Shown here: positions 3,140 to 46,763 of the stretch, in pieces | How the letters are laid out: each line of letters starts with the position of its first letter | How positions within the stretch are numbered: the first letter of the stretch is position 1 | DNA from: a virus | Lineage: Duplodnaviria > Caudoviricetes | IMG/VR virus record: IMGVR_UViG_3300028886_000036 | Span: 160,001-224,000 of that record | Reading direction: 5' to 3' (one strand) | Length of the DNA stretch: 64,000 nucleotides | The notes under the pieces: generated by a model | Databases searched by the model: none | Seen by the model: only the letters and a program-made list of their open reading frames with translations | Told to the model about the DNA's origin: nothing | Position numbers and translations under genes: made by a program

Positions 3140-3446
3140 TTTTTTCAGATATATTATATTTATTAATTATCACCATAGCCTTCGTTATCCACAATACAGA
3201 TTCATTAAAGCTAAGATCCTTAAAGTCAGGCTTAGCATCTAACGTCCCATCATAGCCAGCATAATACATATCTTTAGCCAGCTTAAAGATAAGATCTTTA
3301 TTCTCAAAATTATACGACTTTTCTATTTCAGGAGTAATCCATTTACGTCTAAACCACTTGTCTCCTTTCAACTCCTCATAATGATTAAGCCAATCACGAC
3401 ACATGTCAAATACATTATTAATTACATTTTCTACTGGTTCGTTCAT
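3126..3446 (-). CDS. hypothetical protein
   Basis: Track ORF 3126..3527; start shortened to MNEPVEN to limit overlap with the RNA ligase. Confidence 0.6.
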   Translation of the reverse strand: MNEPVENVINNVFDMCRDWLNHYEELKGDKWFRRKWITPEIEKSYNFENKDLIFKLAKDMYYAGYDGTLDAKPDFKDLSFNESVLWITKAMVIINKYNISEKIEKE

Positions 3447-25795: not shown

Positions 25796-26275
25796 TTAAG
25801 ATACCTTCTTTCCATATTGATTATCAGAAACTAAATACACTCCTAATACTTCATCCCAATGTTTTTCTTGATTTGGCTTAAATCTACCAAACTTAAATAT
25901 AATATTACTATATTTTTTATAGTTATCTAAATCACCAATCTCATCTTCATAATAACCTGTATATATTACAAAGTCATCATTACAACCTTTATCTCTAAAA
26001 TACTCTATCAAACTAATAACTTCATCTTCTTGTAAAATTGGTTCTAATCCACCAATCACTATAGCAGAAGTAATAGGATTATTAATGTATCTCCTATATA
26101 TTTGTTCATTTGATAACTCATGCATTTTAGAGTTGTGAAGCTGGTAATTCTGACAGACTTCACGAGAAATACCAGCTTCATCACAACATTTCCAATTACA
26201 ATAGCAAGTTCCAATAAACATGGAAGGCTTCTTGTAATTGACAAAATCTTCATCTTTTAGATTTGAGATTCTCAA
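25796..26275 (-). CDS. nrdG: anaerobic ribonucleotide reductase activating protein
   Basis: Cys cluster CYCNWKCC, GGLEP, IYTGY, KFGRF...SDNQ; directly downstream of nrdD. Confidence 0.85.
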   Translation of the reverse strand: MRISNLKDEDFVNYKKPSMFIGTCYCNWKCCDEAGISREVCQNYQLHNSKMHELSNEQIYRRYINNPITSAIVIGGLEPILQEDEVISLIEYFRDKGCNDDFVIYTGYYEDEIGDLDNYKKYSNIIFKFGRFKPNQEKHWDEVLGVYLVSDNQYGKKVS

Positions 26276-29200
26276 AAGAGTTCTCCTTTTTGATCAATTT
26301 CATACCAATCTCTTAAAGCAAACTCTGCTTTACGTTCTTTAGAATAGGACTTCTCTGGAGTGAGGAATCCTACAATTCTCTGCCAAGTAGTAGCAACTGG
26401 CTCGCCACAGATTGGGCAGGTTTTACCAAAGAACGAATGATTATTTTTGCAAGTGCTAATTCTAACACAGAAAGCAAAGTAATTAACTCCTTGATCAGCA
26501 ATATAATTAAGAAGATTCCATGCTGTATCAAAATTAGTTAAAGGAGCATCCAAATTTACATGTGCTATAGAACCGCCTGAACATGCTCTATCAAGTTCTG
26601 CACTAATTCTAATCTTTTCATTAAGTGTAGTTTTTACTCCCAAAGGAATCCACTGATTCCCATACAACGGAAGCTCATAAGCTTCTTCTGGGAAGAACAT
26701 CTGATCTTTCTGCATAAGAACAGCAGCAGCTCTTTCTCCAGGGATCTGCTCTATATTAATCATATAATCTTTATCTTTAGCAAACTCTTCTTTAGTATCG
26801 GTAAGGCATTTAAGAAGATCTTTAGCAAACTGAAGTCCTTCATCAGTATAGAAGGTATTACCAAACTCATCCTGATAAGTAAACCCAAATTTTTGGACAG
26901 CTTCATAGATTCCAATAATACCGATTGTATTATACTGAGATTCCATATGAAGCGCACCACAAGTATAGTTTGGAAGTAATCCTTTTTCGATGTTTCTTTT
27001 AATAATGTGCCTAATCACATCAAGGGTTTCACAGCAAAGGATTGTCCTTTCTTTAAGTGATTTAAAGTACTCTTCTTTAGTAGAAGACTCATAGGCAATT
27101 CTTGCAAGATTGATAGTGTTAACTTTGATAGAACCAACTTCTAGAGCAGTTCCTCCGATTGAGTTAAAATACCCAATTTTTTCTACATTAGATACCAATC
27201 TACAATTATGGGTTATAACTCCATTAGGAAGAGTAAAGTATGGTTCATCTTCATTTTCCATTTCAAAGCAGTATACAAAGTCATCATCATAATCAATTTT
27301 TTCAATAGACTTAATCTTAAAGTAAATCGAATTGTTCTTCCAAACATATACATTCTTCTGTTTTCTTCTAATTGTTTCATACCATCTAATACAATAAACT
27401 GGGTAATTTCTGTTAAACTCTTCTTCTCTGATAACAACCATACCATCGCCAGTTCTATCAGAAACATCAATAATAGTATTCATACCAAGTGATGTAAAAA
27501 GAGCTTCCATTTCATAAATAAGCTTTTTCGAAGTTGAATAGATTCTATTAGAGTTACCACCATCAGTAGCGTAATACCCATCAACAATACCTTTTCTAAA
27601 CTCAATTGATTCAAACAAACAATCAAGATTAAGTTCCTTTTCATTGCAATAGTTACCAGATACATATTCTCTAATAAATTTAGCAACTTCATCATTTCTA
27701 ATTACTACAGGATATACATTGTTATAGATCTTGTTTAATGACATAATACTAACTACATCTTCTGGAAGATTATTAAGAGCTAAATTATACTTTTCTTCAT
27801 TAAGGCTTAAATTAACTGTAGTAGTATATGTATCCTTATGTTCATTATCCATAGATCCATCACCAAGATACATACCAATAAGGTATCCATCTTTATATGT
27901 ATAACCTTTATTTTGTTGCTGACCATTAAGTGCTTTAGTATTGAATTCAATATAATCTTCAGTGGTAAGTTTATCAGTACTAATATCTCCTCTAAGAGTT
28001 GGTGTAAGATGGTTATCTGTCATATATAATTCTTTATTGTTAGTAGTAACAACCTTATACATCTCTCTAGCAGGAAGTTTAATTAATTTACCATTTACCC
28101 AGTTACCATTATGGAATACTGTAAAGTTTCTTTTAGTTTCATTATATGGAGATTCAAATAATTCTTTAAAGGTCATGTAATTAACTCCATCGGAAGATTT
28201 ACTTAAACAATACTGATCTCCACTAAAACAACAATTACTTAAACTAGTAACATCTTCTGAAATATAAAAGTTACTATCATTCCATTTCATATTGTGTTTG
28301 CAGCACCATCTAGCAAAATCCTCATCTGCAAACTTACCACCAATTCGAAGAAGTGCATAAGTAAGTACTGGGAAAGTCATCATATTTCTGTCCCTAATTT
28401 TACTTACCATTCTCATAAAACTCTTCTGATACTCCATAAACTCATCTTCATAATCAATCATATAGCTTCCATCTGGAAACTGCTTATCTCCAAACAAAGC
28501 TTCAAAGTATTCACTATCAAAAATAGTAATATTTGTAACCAATATGTTCACATTAAGACGCTACTCTTAATGTCTGCCTATTTAGACAGCTCTATGTCAC
28601 CATAGAGTGCGGACTATATCACGATCTTTATTACTAAAGACCCCATGCACTTCCACTACCAATCGCTTGTAGTGTACTCCCCAAAGGGATAGTCTCTGAA
28701 CCTTGTTTACATGTGTAAACCTTGGCTGCTAATTATCTCTATTAGAGATTTTTCAGCAATTCACATGGTTTGCTTTAACTATCACTAGTTAAAGGCGCAA
28801 ACAGTTTACGCAGACTGATTAACTCTCAGGAACGGCTGATTAAGCCTAAAAATTATTTCTTGGTGAGCTTGATCTCTGTAATATTCAGGACTCTTAATAT
28901 AATATCCATTCTCACAATCTTTCTTCCAAAAATAGAACGAATATATTAAGAAATTTGGCAAACCGCAAGCTCCTGAAGATCTGTTTGACATGAAACTAAC
29001 AAACTCACCAACAAAGTCTGTAAATGTACTTAAATGCTTTGGAGGTTGAGCATTAAAGTTATTTTGTATAAAGTAAAGACCTTTCTCAGCTAAGTCTTTT
29101 AAATCATAAGCAAAACAGTACGGTAAGAAACTTGTACTGTAAGCATCATGGTTATAGAAGTGTCCATCCCATTCATTCTTTAACCAATCTTTAGCGACTT

Positions 29201-29510
29201 CTAATCCATACTTCTTTTTAAGTTCATAGAAGATCTTGTTAAAAGATTCCAGCTTCAATTCTGGCTTTCGCATCTCTGTCATAAGAGAGCAAATATCTTT
29301 AGTACTAGCATTTGCATTACCATCAATTGACGCATCAGCCGTAGTACTATTCTTATCAATAAAGTTATCAATAAACTCTGTGTTGTTTAACTGACTATTG
29401 CTTAATCCATTCAATATAGTAAGTTTATTACCATATTCTTTCTTAAGCGCTTTCAAGCATTCAACAAAATCTTCATCAAGCTTAATTGAAATATCTAAGT
29501 ATCCAGCCAT
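26272..29510 (-). CDS. nrdD: class III anaerobic ribonucleotide reductase; exon 1 28808..29510 + exon 2 26272..28538; contains an intein
   Basis: Splicing restores QSAFTNITIFD; intein removal restores SNCCRL; glycyl-radical motif RIVGF; C-terminal Zn site; mature protein ~647 aa. Confidence 0.93.
27205..28230 (-). mobile_element. intein with LAGLIDADG homing endonuclease (342 aa)
   Basis: Starts CFSGD and ends VITHN before Cys+1; block B TDNH; LAGLIDADG motifs LIGMYLGDG and IVDGYYATDG. Confidence 0.93.
28539..28807 (-). mobile_element. group I self-splicing intron (269 nt, no ORF) in nrdD
   Basis: 5' exon ends in U with P1 GCGU/GCGC (U.G pair); P GAAUUGCUG, Q UUAGCAGC, R UCAGAGACUA, S GAUAUAGUCC; terminal G; splicing restores the frame. 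Confidence 0.93.
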
Positions 29511-41441: not shown

Positions 41442-42305
41442 TTAGATTTCATACATAAATTTTACTCCAGAAGTTCTATATAGATCTAAGCTACTTTGAA
41501 TACCAACTAGTTCTTTATCTGCATCTTTAAATATTCCGCTAAATTTACCCCACAAACAAATATCATTAATGATATACATCATTTCATCAATTTCAATTGA
41601 ACTAAAATTATACTTATCATGAAGAACTTTCTTCATGGCCGTGAAGATATTATACTTACTATCCTTATGCTTAAAAATTATATAAAACATATCATAAGAT
41701 ATATCATTAAACTTTTTTACATAGCTAAGCATCTTACTAAAATTAATTACATAGTTTCTATCAAACAACGCTTTTGTAAATTCAGGATCATTAATATAAA
41801 GATCAATATCATTATATTCAACTAAAGACCACATTGGATCGAATAAAAGATCAAACATAGAACCGCTGTAATAGTTATTATAACTATCAAGAATAAGTTT
41901 TGTATCAATATTTGTGTTCTTATATTTTTCTTGAACAAACTTCTTCTCTAATTTGTTCAGCTTCTTATCCTCAACTTTAAGATTATTTGAAAGTTTAAAT
42001 AGTTTGTTATATTTACCAAGTTGTAGTTTATCAGTGTCAACAGCATAGTTTAGGATATCATTCCAGTTATATTGATCTTTTAAGGTACTAATTACATGTT
42101 GCTCATAATTAGTACCTTTAAAACCACTTTTCTCTATTGAATGTAATCTTTCTTGCTGATATAACTTATCATAGTTTAATTTATGATCACTATAAAGATA
42201 CTTAATAGCATCAATTAGTTCTGTGTCAAAAAAATCTACTATTTCTTGAATAGGCATCTTCTTAAACGAAGACAATCTAACAAATTGGTTTAATACGTCA
42301 AGCAT
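41442..42305 (-). CDS. hypothetical protein
   Basis: 287-aa ORF. Confidence 0.75.
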   Translation of the reverse strand: MLDVLNQFVRLSSFKKMPIQEIVDFFDTELIDAIKYLYSDHKLNYDKLYQQERLHSIEKSGFKGTNYEQHVISTLKDQYNWNDILNYAVDTDKLQLGKYNKLFKLSNNLKVEDKKLNKLEKKFVQEKYKNTNIDTKLILDSYNNYYSGSMFDLLFDPMWSLVEYNDIDLYINDPEFTKALFDRNYVINFSKMLSYVKKFNDISYDMFYIIFKHKDSKYNIFTAMKKVLHDKYNFSSIEIDEMMYIINDICLWGKFSGIFKDADKELVGIQSSLDLYRTSGVKFMYEI

Positions 42306-44191
42306 GGCATACCTACCATAATCATACTATTATTCAAGTAATCTCCAATCTTAACATTAGCAATCTTATCAAAAATTTTATTCTTATAAACCAGAGCATA
42401 AGTAAACAGTTCAATATACGATTCCTTAAAAATCTCTTGATCCCAAGAAAAGAATTTAACAGTTTCTTCAAATCTAATAATATGCTCTGCATAAACTGTT
42501 TTATCAGTATACTGAATAAGTTCTACCAAAATGTTTCTAGCCAAAGTATACATCTGTTCATTAATCAAAGAAACTAATCCTGCATTTTTTTCCTGCATAA
42601 CTCTATTAGACAAGTATCTAGTATTTGCATAATACAACAAGAGATAAATATCAGTAACTGCAGCTGTAAGACAATTAGCTTCTTCAGAATTGAGCTTCTT
42701 AAATTCAGAGTCATTTAACACGCAGAATTTATATTGATCCTTTTCCATTAAAAGATACTTATCAATAGTTCTAATATCCTTAGGATTTCTACCAACAGTT
42801 TTAATCAACACTTCTAGATACTTCTGTCCAAGCTGCTTAAATTCATCATCATTGGAAAACATTTCATGCCCATCAACAGCACACATTTCAAGAGCTTTAT
42901 AAGCTGAAATTGACAACTCATTAAAGTCTTTATCCGGATACTTATTGCTGTATTCATAAGTTGCCGCAAATACACTAATCGAATAGATCAAAGATGTACA
43001 GGGTATACCAATCATACCCCTATTAACCAACATAACAGGGATTGCTTCTGGATTAAACACTCCAGTTTTCTCAATAGCTTTAATAATACCTTTATACTTC
43101 TTTCTTCTGTCTACCTTATAAGTTTTAGCTAGACAATTCAGAACATCCTTATTAAGATAAACTTTTCTACCTTCCTCCAGTTCAGATTCCTCAATATAAC
43201 TAATTCCCATAACTGGCTCTATCACTTTATCTTCCTCCTTGGGATACAATGTAAATTCATCAACTACATTCCACCCATCTTTATCTCCAACCATTATACC
43301 ACTTTTCTGTTCAATTAGTCTATTAGTATCTGAATGATCTATCGCTTCATCAATCACATCATCCAAATCATTGATATCAAATACAACAGATTCCTTGTTC
43401 TCAGGAATAGATGAGTTATCCACAGGCTTATCCACAATATCCACATTATTAACTTCCTCAACTAAGGAAGTCATATCAATAGTAGACAGACTATTGTTAT
43501 CCCAATCCATTTCAGTATCATAATTAGATTTAGTTTCAATGTATTCCTTGTTAGTAAGTTTTTCAAGCAATCCAGTAATTTTATCAAACTTATCAATAAC
43601 CGAATTAAGTTTGTTATACTTATTGTTAGCTTGAAACATGAATACATACATAGCAATGTTTGAGGCAAAGTTGATTAAGAGCTTACTAATGGTTCTCATC
43701 TCCGCCCTAGACAGAATCATAGTAAGAGTATATTCAGCTTTTACAAACATTACTTTATACAAAGGAATACCACGATTATCAGTAACTGGAATAAATTTAA
43801 GGCTAAGTTTATCATTCAAAACCTTTTGAAATACTACTTTGTTAGTATACTTATTGGATACATACCAGCCATTACTAGTAAGTGTTTTGTTAAAATATTC
43901 TTTAATAGAACTAGCTTCACTATACAAATCGAATACAGTGCTTAACATCGCAGCATTACTTCCATTCAAACTAATCATTTGCTTAACATCATTCACATAA
44001 CTGCTTAAGCATAGCATAACATTGTATTTGTAGATAATGTTGGTAAATACTCCAATCTCGGCATAGATACCAACTTCAGTAAACAACTTATTAGTTAACG
44101 ACCCAAAATTGAAACCAAGTTTACTTTCTTCAATATTGAACCACTCAAACGAAGTTTTTTCTTTTAGATCTGACATTTTAATTCCTCCCAT
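42290..44191 (-). CDS. large hypothetical protein adjacent to the origin; contains internal DnaA boxes
   Basis: 633 aa (likely start MSDLKEK after GGGAGG); has its own sigma70 promoter. Confidence 0.8.
   Translation of the reverse strand: MGGIKMSDLKEKTSFEWFNIEESKLGFNFGSLTNKLFTEVGIYAEIGVFTNIIYKYNVMLCLSSYVNDVKQMISLNGSNAAMLSTVFDLYSEASSIKEYFNKTLTSNGWYVSNKYTNKVVFQKVLNDKLSLKFIPVTDNRGIPLYKVMFVKAEYTLTMILSRAEMRTISKLLINFASNIAMYVFMFQANNKYNKLNSVIDKFDKITGLLEKLTNKEYIETKSNYDTEMDWDNNSLSTIDMTSLVEEVNNVDIVDKPVDNSSIPENKESVVFDINDLDDVIDEAIDHSDTNRLIEQKSGIMVGDKDGWNVVDEFTLYPKEEDKVIEPVMGISYIEESELEEGRKVYLNKDVLNCLAKTYKVDRRKKYKGIIKAIEKTGVFNPEAIPVMLVNRGMIGIPCTSLIYSISVFAATYEYSNKYPDKDFNELSISAYKALEMCAVDGHEMFSNDDEFKQLGQKYLEVLIKTVGRNPKDIRTIDKYLLMEKDQYKFCVLNDSEFKKLNSEEANCLTAAVTDIYLLLYYANTRYLSNRVMQEKNAGLVSLINEQMYTLARNILVELIQYTDKTVYAEHIIRFEETVKFFSWDQEIFKESYIELFTYALVYKNKIFDKIANVKIGDYLNNSMIMVGMPCLTY
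43416..43445 (+). promoter_or_regulatory. intragenic DnaA-box cluster (3 boxes)
   Basis: TTATCCACA 43416-43424, TTATCCACA 43428-43436, ATATCCACA 43437-43445. Confidence 0.75.
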
Positions 44192-44206
44192 TTATTTGTC
44201 AACGTA

Positions 44207-44234
44207 ATTGTAACACACAATTTTTATCTGTCAA
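44207..44234 (-). promoter_or_regulatory. sigma70-type promoter for the leftward arm
   Basis: TTGACA-N16-TACAAT with extended TG, ~20 bp from the DnaA boxes. Confidence 0.6.
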
Positions 44235-44253
44235 GTGTCACATCAGAAAAAGC

Positions 44254-44413
44254 TTATCCACAAGTTATACACAGGTTATCCACAATTTGTTATTTAGTTA
44301 CAATATAGTCAGTTCTAGTTAATTTTACTTTTTTAACATAGTTATCCACATATCCACAGCTCCTACTATTACTGAAAAATAATACATACTACTACGTAGT
44401 ATGTATTATTTTT
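44254..44413. other. oriC-like replication origin: DnaA boxes, DnaA-trios and AT-rich palindrome
   Basis: Boxes at 44254, 44265 and 44276 (11-bp phasing); tandem pair at 44342/44350 followed by GCTC-CTACTATTACT; 18-bp perfect inverted repeat 44375-44413; sits at the coding-strand switch. Confidence 0.8.
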
Positions 44414-44608
44414 GTAAAAACTGACTTTATAGCACTATAAAATTTTTTCTCCGAAAATGGTTATACCCTAAAAAAATGCAAAGCATACTTTTACAGGGTA
44501 TAATAAAGTCGGTCGTGTTTGTTTGCTAATAACAAACACTCCCTCCACTAGATAAACTCAGTCAAAGAAACAATTTGTATCAATCCAATTAACTTTAAAC
44601 TTGAACTA

Positions 44609-44637
44609 TTGACAGCAATGAATAACCAGTGTATAAT
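44609..44637 (+). promoter_or_regulatory. consensus sigma70 promoter
   Basis: TTGACA-N17-TATAAT. Confidence 0.75.
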
Positions 44638-44707
44638 CCAAATTAATATAAAAACATGATTAACAGATTGGTTTAAAAATGCTTATGTGTTCCGCCCAAA
44701 AACACAC

Positions 44708-44737
44708 TTGACAAATTGACCAACTTGTGTATATAAT
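44708..44737 (+). promoter_or_regulatory. sigma70 promoter
   Basis: TTGACA-N18-TATAAT upstream of the 44793 ORF. Confidence 0.6.
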
Positions 44738-44792
44738 CATGTTAGCAAGATTGTATAATCTTGTACATTAAAAAATTTGGAGGAATGCTTCA

Positions 44793-45140
44793 ATGAATGA
44801 ATATAAAATTTTGTTTGGTTTTGCAACGGTAGATTTCAATGAGAATATTGGTATTGTAATTGATGAGACTGATGATTACCTTATTCTTAAGAAGCCTTAT
44901 ACGCTTATTAAGCAGCCTACTAGTAGCGGCTCTATGAGTGTTGCGTTTGTTCCATTTATGATGTCTGCTGGAGTTGGCGACGGAAACAATGTTAAAGTCA
45001 ACAAAACTCAAATAGCTTGGTCAATGGTTGAGCCAGATATAGACGAGAATCTGGTTAATAACTACATCACACAAACCACAGGTTTAGTTGTAGCTGGTTC
45101 AGATGTTAAGTCAGCTGCATCAAAACTTTTAGTCAAATAA
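44793..45140 (+). CDS. Sm/LSm-like fold protein
   Basis: ENIGIVIDETDDYLILKKP...VAFVPFM...LVNNYITQTTGLVV pattern typical of phage Sm-like proteins; RBS GGAGG. Confidence 0.55.
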   Translation: MNEYKILFGFATVDFNENIGIVIDETDDYLILKKPYTLIKQPTSSGSMSVAFVPFMMSAGVGDGNNVKVNKTQIAWSMVEPDIDENLVNNYITQTTGLVVAGSDVKSAASKLLVK

Positions 45141-45145
45141 TTGAA

Positions 45146-45400
45146 ATGGACGGTAGAATATCTAACTACTACCACAACAATATAAGTAACATCTCGTCAG
45201 ATCCTGATCAGTTGTATTATAGAGCTGAAAATGCTATACAACTGCTAATAGATTATTGTTACACCAGAAATTGTGGTGAAGAAGAAAGGGAGAAATTGAA
45301 TGAGCTTTTAGATGCTTTAATTGAGTGTCATGAAAATAGCGAACTGGATTTTGTATATGATAACAACTTGGACGGTGAGGAGGCAATCTATAATGACTAA
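45146..45400 (+). CDS. hypothetical protein
   Basis: 84-aa acidic ORF. Confidence 0.65.
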   Translation: MDGRISNYYHNNISNISSDPDQLYYRAENAIQLLIDYCYTRNCGEEEREKLNELLDALIECHENSELDFVYDNNLDGEEAIYND

Positions 45401-46763
45401 TGCAATTGGATTTGTAAAATGTTATACAAATGATTCCAATTATAATACTAAAGTACTCTATAACGTTATAGATACTAACAAGTATAGAGGATCAAATCTA
45501 GCATTAGCTATTAATGACAAAACTACTACTGGTAAGGACATATCTAATTTCAAGTTGGATATTAAAACCAGTACAAACATATCTAAAGCTCCATCTAAAA
45601 ATAAAGAATCATCCTCATTATTAGGGTTTTATGATGAAGATCTTTTTACTTGCAAGAAAGAACCAAATGTAACACAGATGGGTAATGTATATTACCTAGC
45701 TACAGAAGGAAGTATTACTAATAAAGAAGAGTTATCTAACAGGTACAACTTTGATCAAAAATTAACCTGTACAGAGTTTCTTATGGCATATCTTAAAATG
45801 AACTTTCAATTATTCAATAATCCTAAAGATGCTATAATGGAAACTATTAAGTATCTTGAAGGTAAGTTCAGTTTTATACTATATATAAACCCTCTAAATA
45901 TTGTGTATTGGTATACTACTACTGAATTGTTCTTTAGAAAAGACGAGAATAAGTTTATTATTAGTTCGGATCAAGTTGATTGGGCAGAGGATATGAGATC
46001 TGATCATAAAGTGTTGTATATGAACTCTCTTGATTTTAATATGGTTAGAAGCTTTAAATCGCATAAGGATAAAACTGATATAGTCTACACATGTGTATTT
46101 GATAATACTATTGAATCAGTAGTTGCTATGTATACAGTTAAAGAGTTATTCAATCCTAAAAAGATTAATGTCATAACCAGTTATAAAAATTATCTCGATG
46201 TTCAACAAGCACTACAAAACGATGAAGTATTTAATGTAGTAAGAACTGAAATAGATAAACTTGCAGAGCTTCCAAGTGAAGATTATGATGTGTTTGTAGA
46301 TTCAATCAATATTAATTCACAGTACAGATTGATTTCAGACATTTATAAGATGCAATATAATGCTAATACTGAAGAACCCAATATGAAGTATTATCCAATA
46401 TTTAGAGAACTACGAATCACAGATATTGTAAAACTTGGAATTTATCTAAAGGTTCCATTTGGTAGATTTAAACTGTGTGAAAGAGAAGATAATGAATATT
46501 ATAATACCAATACTGATATGCTGTTTTATAACTGTGGTAATTGTCCTACTTGTATCAGAACAAAGTCTATCTTTGATAAAATTGGATATGATTTAAAAGA
46601 TACAGCTTTTGAAGATCCAGTTATTAAATATAAAGACCATAAGATTATTGACAATCTTAAGATAAAGAACTGTGAAAATTTTATAGATAACTGTATGGAT
46701 GATTTTGATTTTAGTGCTTTAGCAAATACCATAACAAAGGATGCCTTTAAATATGTTGGATAA
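45393..46763 (+). CDS. degenerate class II glutamine amidotransferase - QueC-like fusion
   Basis: Start ATG 45393 after GAGGAGG; GATase-like EGSITN...LEGKFSFILY; QueC-like DIVKLG..LKVP...C...CGNCPTC; PP-loop replaced by DNTIES. Confidence 0.65.
   Translation: MTNAIGFVKCYTNDSNYNTKVLYNVIDTNKYRGSNLALAINDKTTTGKDISNFKLDIKTSTNISKAPSKNKESSSLLGFYDEDLFTCKKEPNVTQMGNVYYLATEGSITNKEELSNRYNFDQKLTCTEFLMAYLKMNFQLFNNPKDAIMETIKYLEGKFSFILYINPLNIVYWYTTTELFFRKDENKFIISSDQVDWAEDMRSDHKVLYMNSLDFNMVRSFKSHKDKTDIVYTCVFDNTIESVVAMYTVKELFNPKKINVITSYKNYLDVQQALQNDEVFNVVRTEIDKLAELPSEDYDVFVDSININSQYRLISDIYKMQYNANTEEPNMKYYPIFRELRITDIVKLGIYLKVPFGRFKLCEREDNEYYNTNTDMLFYNCGNCPTCIRTKSIFDKIGYDLKDTAFEDPVIKYKDHKIIDNLKIKNCENFIDNCMDDFDFSALANTITKDAFKYVG

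Follow-up and report, generated by a model that had tools for sequence, protein, structure and literature searches.

The region analysed here belongs to a single virus record (IMG/VR IMGVR_UViG_3300028886_000036; Caudoviricetes) of 275,466 bp and 32% GC, estimated by CheckV to be complete; the window is the stretch of 64,000 nucleotides from position 160,001 to position 224,000 of that record, and coordinates are those of the window unless given for the genome. About 70 genes extending across 135–203 kb of the genome point leftward, and most genes to the right of the site point rightward. A non-coding gap of about 600 bp (44177–44792) holds a DnaA module on the + strand, which thus lies between divergent transcription units (leftward promoter at 44234–44207, rightward promoters at 44609 and 44708) and at the head of the replication-gene block. 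The features of the locus are as follows.

42290–44176, − strand: gene for a 628-aa protein, the first of the leftward replication block, with a GGAGG ribosome-binding site and its ATG at 44176
43416–43445, + strand: auxiliary cluster of three DnaA boxes (TTATCCACA, TTATCCACA and ATATCCACA) inside the coding sequence of the 628-aa gene
44207–44234, − strand: σA/σ70-type promoter of the leftward block (TTGACA, 16 nt, TG-n-TACAAT), with an extended −10 and a score of 11/12
44254–44284, + strand: array of three DnaA boxes, all on one strand and spaced with a period of 11 bp (TTATCCACA at 44254, TTATACACA at 44265 and TTATCCACA at 44276)
44285–44341, no strand assigned: 57-bp spacer from the array to the box pair, with a partly conserved sequence (CAATATAG...TCTAGT) found even in the clade at 37% identity
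44342–44358, + strand: overlapping tandem DnaA boxes, TTATCCACA at 44342–44350 (perfect) and ATATCCACA at 44350–44358 (one mismatch)
44359–44374, + strand: GC spacer (GCTC, 44359–44362) and DnaA-trios (CTA CTA TTA CTG, 44363–44374)
44375–44413, no strand assigned: AT-rich perfect inverted repeat, with 18-nt arms (44375–44392 and 44396–44413) that are 100% complementary and a 3-nt centre
44609–44637 and 44708–44737, + strand: two σ70-type promoters of perfect consensus (12/12 each)

The boxes of the array are separated, as read from the sequence, by gaps of 2 bp, and their starts precede the box pair by 66, 77 and 88 bp. Within the pair the boxes are offset by 8 bp and share one base; the better box is 12 bp from the first CTA (44363) and 9 bp from CTC, and the bottom strand of the trios reads 3′-GAT GAT AAT GAC-5′. 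Each single strand of the inverted repeat is able to fold as a hairpin (−15.1 kcal/mol for the DNA hairpin, z −9.4), for which an Rfam search returned sub-threshold chance hits only. The AT-rich stretch (44375–44413) falls in the 96–97th percentile of the least stable 40–60-bp windows genome-wide and is not the genome minimum. A sequence-only reading of the window had proposed three phased boxes at 44254, 44265 and 44276, a tandem pair at 44342–44358 followed by a GC spacer and 3′-GAT trios, a perfect 18-bp AT-rich inverted repeat and a switch of gene strand at the site, in a phage with its own replisome; every one of these elements was recovered in our analysis at the same place, and the replisome is described below.

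The leftward promoter lies about 20 bp from the first DnaA box, with the array directly upstream of its −35 element, and can also be read in the alignment of four relatives (L140, L001, L003 and L005; see below). Both rightward promoters are kept in relatives as well; they point away from the module, into rightward early genes. A promoter scan gave no convincing promoter reading into the element, with weak candidates only in that direction, and a terminator scan found none in the window copy of the module. Further to the right, a strongly conserved hairpin occupies 44505–44550 on the + strand (GTCGTGTTTGTTTG, a loop and CAAACAC), with a promoter-like TATAAT ahead of it at about 44499 and a C-rich stretch, CCCTCC, after it; in the matching hairpin of L005 both sides of the stem are changed (CGTG/CAC to CGGG/CCC). 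The hairpin may belong to a small RNA or to a leader whose tail is anti-Shine-Dalgarno.

The left block encodes a primase, a clamp loader, an Mre11-like phosphoesterase, a 5′-3′ exonuclease, a RecA/UvsX-like recombinase, NrdD with an intein and a GyrB-like topoisomerase subunit, and a DnaB-family helicase gene is located at 240 kb of the genome. No phage-encoded DnaA and no DnaC/DnaI-type loader were found, nor any match to the initiator families DnaD/DnaB_2, Phage_rep_org_N and Rep_O; a Pfam search for a gp59 loader was uninformative, its control being without any match anywhere. Neither ParB nor a tyrosine integrase was found, which disfavours plasmid-like carriage, a role raised earlier as an alternative for the site. 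The NrdD sequence (26272–28551 and 28806–29510, − strand) contains an intein that has a LAGLIDADG domain, and the N-terminal part of NrdD is a separate upstream ORF.

The 275-kb genome contains eight perfect DnaA boxes, five of which lie within 927 bp at the module locus; the three outside it compare with about 3.5 expected for the whole genome. The genome-wide Poisson probability of five boxes (at most one mismatch) within 120 bp is about 3e-4, which speaks against chance clustering, and the combination of box, spacer and trios, with at most one mismatch in the box, occurs once in the whole genome. Other than the DnaA box, no repeat family, that is, no other iteron, was detected between 43300 and 44900. 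The perfect boxes away from the locus are at 3185 (+) and 5242 (+) and at genome position 15889 (−); one of the three is inside the GyrB-like topoisomerase gene, where it codes for V-D-K with GTG.

The three intragenic boxes (43416–43445) are about 810 bp from the origin boxes and share their orientation. They fall in the part of the 628-aa gene that codes for a disordered acidic linker and encode the peptide NVDIVDKPVDN, in which 3/3 Val codons are GTG, a codon used for 9.5% of Val residues genome-wide. The cluster is kept in the clade whose 628-aa protein is 76–87% identical and is absent from L005 and L008; L003 has a different peptide at this position and still carries three perfect boxes. 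The choice of GTG codons and the persistence of the boxes in L003 despite the different peptide point to selection of these boxes at the level of DNA.

The arrangement resembles the basal unwinding system (BUS) of bacterial chromosome origins (Richardson 2016, 2019 [PMC6669920]; Pelliciari 2021 [PMC8287927]; Pelliciari 2023 [PMC10721633]), and in particular incC of B. subtilis, in that it combines tandem same-strand boxes, a GC spacer, 3′-GAT-5′ trios opposite the box strand, an AT-rich region and phased upstream boxes; the phage box pair is the counterpart of DnaA-boxes 6/7. The BUS is defined by a box with at most two mismatches to TTATCCACA, optionally followed, between this box and the trios, by a same-strand second box with at most four mismatches; by a spacer of 0–16 bp (peak at about 10–13 bp, most commonly 13 bp), usually GC-rich beside the trios; and by a run of three or more trios whose middle base on the bound strand is A, 3′-GAT-5′ being preferred beside the box (PMC8287927). 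The phage module contains every sequence element of this definition (box, second box, 12-bp spacer, trios, orientation and AT-rich region) as well as the phased upstream box.

To place the match among chromosomes, the 29-bp core common to the phages, TTATCCACWTATCCACNGNNNCTAYTAYT, was scanned against one genome per prokaryote species. It occurs exactly in at least 120 bacterial species from many phyla, and among the core matches listed (at least 120 species) dnaA is the immediate upstream neighbour, on the same strand, in 72, and dnaN the immediate downstream neighbour in 60; at the Brochothrix campestris locus the order DnaA–core–DnaN was confirmed by Pfam. The box-to-trio orientation of the phage module is the chromosomal one, as in these dnaA/dnaN loci. 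The overlapping box pair of the phage recurs as an identical 18-mer in at least 120 bacterial genomes. This 18-mer, TTATCCAC(A/T)TATCCACAG, with a GC-rich triplet and then CTA trios after it, is present letter for letter in the origins of at least 120 species (L009–L128), among them Bacillota, Chloroflexota, Deinococcota and Actinomycetota and also Poribacteria, Cloacimonadota, Bdellovibrionota and Spirochaetota. In 112 bacterial origins among the matches listed, the distance to the closest upstream box on the same strand follows an 11-bp ladder (43/44, 54/55, 66/67, 77 or 88/89 bp), and 19 of the 112 have at least three phased boxes, for example at 55, 66 and 77 bp. At the level of sequence, the phage module (66, 77 and 88 bp) reproduces this geometry as well as the core, and its spacing agrees with the requirement of the minimal B. 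subtilis system for a distal, helically phased upstream box (PMC6669920). The earlier description of the site as having a bacterial-oriC-style architecture is thus upheld by the letter-for-letter core, the geometry and, as set out below, conservation in distant phage relatives. Many of the bacterial origins with the 18-mer also have an inverted TAGTAG run 30–45 bp after the trios, and in a Ktedonobacteraceae MAG (L074:476–574) two BUS cores face each other (476–504, +; 546–574, −), forming a mirror-image twin module.

When extended homology was considered across the at least 120 origins, the similarity of the phage module to any single one ended after about 35 bp, so that no donor or host can be named. 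The module has phage genes on both sides and no dnaA: it is a phage-borne sequence match to the BUS and not a chromosomal oriC beside dnaA/dnaN. It differs from the bacterial BUS in that it is carried by a virulent-looking 275-kb phage, between divergent phage promoters and not next to dnaA/dnaN; in that its AT-rich element is a perfect palindrome, its trios are only four and a phage gene contains a further box cluster; and in that the DnaA would be the host's, whereas most of the replisome is phage-encoded.

Relatives were found through homologues of the 628-aa protein in a protein database and by an alignment-based scan; locus searches that used single proteins, with two flanking proteins, found nothing, and BLAST of 43000–46000 against 50,697 reference phage genomes gave no match. 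By amino acid identity of the neighbouring protein, the relatives are L140 (87%), L001/L002 (86%, on a 293-kb contig), L003 (76%), L004/L005 (68%, on a 281-kb contig) and, more distantly, L008 (37%) and L141–L143 (37%, on a 284-kb contig); the L139 locus covers only 144 bp upstream. Conservation of the layout in related phages, which the sequence-only reading had proposed as a check, extends over all these numbered relatives from L140 to L141–L143, that is, over three deep clades and down to about 37% protein identity, leaving aside L139. The common order is two to four phased boxes, a spacer, a box pair or a single box, a GC spacer, three or four CTA-type trios, AT-rich DNA and a hairpin. A distance of 1.2–2.2 kb, with other genes in it, separates the module from the gene for the 628-aa homologue in L008 and L141; since the layout is kept at this different distance, it is the module itself that is conserved and not merely a promoter region. 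In all long contigs the module is internal.

In seven lineages the distance from the proximal box of the array to the pair, measured start to start, is 66, 66, 66 and 65 bp or 55, 55 and 56 bp, and the two classes (65/66 and 55/56 bp) differ by one helical turn. The number and orientation of the boxes vary among relatives, three of which have a reversed DnaA box in place of the conserved spacer sequence (44285–44341). Across five phage lineages, invariant columns make up 94% of the box pair, the most conserved part of the intergenic region, 59% of the GC spacer and trios, and 28% of the whole intergenic region. The central T of the trios (A on the bound strand) is kept in 20/20 cases (4/4 trios in each of five aligned lineages). 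When two 10-kb loci, those of the window and of L008, were compared, the best nucleotide match was the origin (78% over 138 bp). In relatives both arms of the palindrome are changed in a way that maintains its symmetry; in L008 and L141 a GC-rich hairpin with a T-run, resembling an intrinsic terminator, replaces the AT-rich palindrome at the same place. No module was found within the 10 kb examined of L006/L007 (36% identity). When L006:562–3780 is set against L141:3950–5930, the region upstream of the 628-aa homologue, module included, is seen to be replaced by a gene for a 1072-aa tail-fibre-like protein, and nucleotide similarity of L006 to L141 begins only about 70 bp before the homologue gene.

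That the cluster arose by chance, or that a chimeric assembly has joined a host oriC to phage DNA, is an a priori possibility in metagenome assemblies, and its only ground here; the sequence-only reading had itself pointed to a chimeric junction as what might undo it. The same module with the same flanking phage genes recurs in at least seven assemblies made independently from different samples; neither dnaA nor dnaN is present, and the similarity to bacterial origins does not exceed about 35 bp. The conservation data refute both chance and chimera, and we assign this explanation a negligible probability.

Cumulative GC skew was another check named beforehand. Its global minimum, at about 204–205 kb of the genome, coincides with the module, so the predicted inflection is present; it is, however, explained almost entirely by coding-strand bias. 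The coding strand has a skew of about +0.2 whichever strand a gene is on and wherever it lies in the genome, and in a regression the strand term was 0.186 ± 0.006, with a replichore term of 0.015 ± 0.007 (about 2 sigma). The best-fit circular origin, at 207.5 kb, is close to the module, in a fit landscape that is nearly flat. As gene orientation accounts for the minimum, we rejected GC skew as non-diagnostic, and it counts neither for nor against an origin.

We think it probable, short of confident, that the module (44254–44413) is a phage origin opened by host DnaA, and the most likely role of this phage-borne BUS copy is that of the replication origin of the jumbo-phage family, at least early in infection. 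Opening by DnaA is the most economical reading by virtue of the mechanism demonstrated for the identical bacterial module, and not of results obtained with the phage; by the same analogy we infer DnaA binding, unwinding, helicase loading and origin activity, and likewise the bidirectional opening by host DnaA that had been suggested earlier. Host DnaA would bind the high-affinity box pair (44342–44358) and the phased array (44254–44284), a step to which the intragenic cluster (43416–43445) may contribute. DnaA-ATP would then oligomerise from the pair onto the bottom-strand trios (3′-GAT GAT AAT GAC-5′), a step that the upstream boxes, being helically phased, would assist by looping, and the adjoining AT-rich palindrome would melt. 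Divergent transcription from the strong flanking promoters could add negative supercoiling, and the replicative helicase, either the DnaB-family enzyme of the phage or that of the host, would be placed onto the bubble. Later replication would probably be driven by recombination, as in T4.

Several observations weigh against an origin of this kind. A phage with a full replisome of its own does not obviously need DnaA, and T4-like phages initiate without an initiator protein, through R-loops and recombination. The box array abuts a conserved promoter, which is the typical position of a transcription-factor site; the related lineage L006/L007 lacks the module within 10 kb; and the AT-rich element, if easily melted, is not the least stable DNA of a genome with 32% GC.

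The main rival reading is that the module is a DnaA-responsive switch of the divergent promoters, sensing the growth state of the host, or a DnaA sink that stalls host initiation, and that phage replication does not start there. Three phased boxes stand directly upstream of the −35 element of a conserved σA-type promoter, and DnaA is known to act as a transcription factor where boxes are clustered, as at the P. aeruginosa oriCII/gidA promoter (PMC13438810). The variable number and orientation of boxes among relatives would suit a binding platform, and the intragenic boxes raise the local DnaA-binding capacity. A switch or sink, however, needs double-stranded boxes only and leaves the GC spacer, the trios (20/20), the AT-rich hairpin and the 11-bp ladder unexplained, and seven to nine boxes per genome copy make a small sink. 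The conservation of the trios and of the AT-rich hairpin favours an origin, since binding of DnaA to double-stranded DNA alone would not need them. We therefore regard a purely regulatory or titrating function as unlikely, though deserving of serious attention; by analogy with bacterial oriC, where dnaA is regulated too, origin and regulatory roles may coexist.

Phage T4 offers a second comparison. Its origins oriF and oriG are R-loop origins, made of a promoter and a downstream unwinding element, without DnaA; the phage has a gp41-type helicase, primase, clamp loader and UvsX-type recombinase but no initiator, and uses its origins early and recombination-dependent replication thereafter. The present phage is likewise large and virulent-looking, with a comparable replisome set and no initiator protein found. 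An R-loop origin could therefore be envisaged here too, with an RNA across or beside the AT-rich palindrome priming the first leading strand and DnaA acting only as an accessory or a regulator. Such an origin would fit the T4-like replisome, the lack of an initiator among the genes found, the strong promoters flanking the element and the conserved hairpin that closes the module with a T-run and is terminator-like in L008 and L141. Yet the consensus promoters point away and no convincing one leads into the element, in contrast to oriF and oriG; no terminator was found in the window copy; and the exact identity to the BUS, a DnaA-type unwinding module, would have no role. This makes an R-loop origin rather improbable.

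In T5-like phages, conserved DnaA-box pairs and inverted repeats occur in a large non-coding region by the earliest genes, and binding of membrane-associated DnaA has been put forward there as a hypothesis only (bioRxiv 10.1101/866236). With this iss region of T5 the phage locus shares conserved, precise DnaA boxes and inverted repeats, the large size of the non-coding region that contains them and the setting in a large, virulent-looking phage; it is likewise next to a group of small genes whose promoters are strong and of host type. The module might thus be a DNA-anchoring or injection-pause signal, like the DnaA-box arrays in the first-step-transfer region of those phages. The T5 pairs, however, are 3 bp apart, are proposed to be non-replicative and lie in long inverted repeats of the terminal repeat, where trios have not been described, whereas here the pair overlaps by 1 bp, the array gaps are 2 bp, and the module is an oriC BUS, internal in all long contigs. 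We consider anchoring very improbable; both it and an R-loop origin are less likely than either the DnaA-opened origin or the switch or sink.

The DnaA-opened origin also has counterparts in which host DnaA is used. Among mobile elements, phage-plasmids and iteron plasmids (P1 oriR, pSC101 and RK2) have DnaA boxes at their origins and use host DnaA (review PMC4980987); these, however, need their own Rep protein on iterons, whereas the phage has no other iterons and no matches to the Rep-type families searched, and carries the chromosomal unwinding module itself. A likeness is also found in oriC2 of Clostridioides difficile, a low-GC Firmicute origin with a similar trio run, CACCTACTACTATTACTACTA, which directly follows the boxes and precedes the mapped unwinding region (PMC7561715). 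The C. difficile origin has two parts, a gene lying between the first box cluster and the second at a distance of about 1.3 kb, and the intragenic cluster of the phage is 0.8 kb away. The oriC2 region is chromosomal and flanked by dnaA and dnaN, and its DnaA-dependent unwinding was shown experimentally.

The 628-aa protein encoded next to the module matched no Pfam and no PHROGs family, and its 12 aligned homologues all come from metagenome or virus contigs. It consists of an N-terminal domain (residues 12–176), the disordered acidic linker (211–278) and a helical C-terminal domain. A fold search with the model of the whole protein gave weak hits only. Folded alone, the N-terminal domain was modelled with a pLDDT of 85 and matched Pur-alpha in Foldseek (E 2.8e-4); alignment to 3k44_A (VIA-align) gave a Z of 11.8 and an rmsd of 3.6 Å, with 141/145 residues aligned. 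According to this model, the domain has a PUR-alpha repeat I-II/Whirly-like nucleic-acid-binding fold and not a known Rep fold. In a more daring version of the DnaA-opened origin, the phages of this family, about 280 kb in size, would fire their sole origin through host DnaA-ATP, and the PUR-alpha/Whirly-like protein would be a phage factor of a new kind that binds the melted palindrome strands and hands the bubble to the phage DnaB-type helicase, replacing the host DnaD/DnaB/DnaI loaders; we hold this to be doubtful. If the module were indeed the sole origin, phage DNA replication would be gated by the initiation potential of the host.

To our knowledge, how replication starts in large virulent phages without an initiator gene is largely unknown outside T4, and a chromosomal-type DnaA unwinding module on such phages is a concrete candidate origin open to direct testing, for which an in vitro assay of DnaA-dependent strand separation has already been published (PMC8287927). 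An origin of this type would imply that phage replication can be tied to the DnaA-ATP status of the host, and raises the question of whether such phages and the host chromosome compete for DnaA, and of whether this can be exploited by hosts.

Our literature search found no description of DnaA-trios or of a BUS in a phage; one paper reports DnaA boxes only, predicted by Ori-Finder, in a Pseudomonas phage. What the present case adds is a virulent-looking T4-like jumbo phage with its own replisome, deep conservation of the module, the ladder geometry of bacterial origins and a PUR-like neighbour. The 29-bp core together with the 11-bp ladder provides a simple signature by which origins could be annotated in the genomes of uncultured phages. 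In IMG/VR, nine viral contigs unrelated to this phage (L130–L138; GC 41–69%) carry the identical core with upstream boxes and have no dnaA or dnaN nearby, which suggests that the strategy may be general. One of these contigs, L133, has eight boxes with at most one mismatch, seven of them perfect, within about 165 bp.
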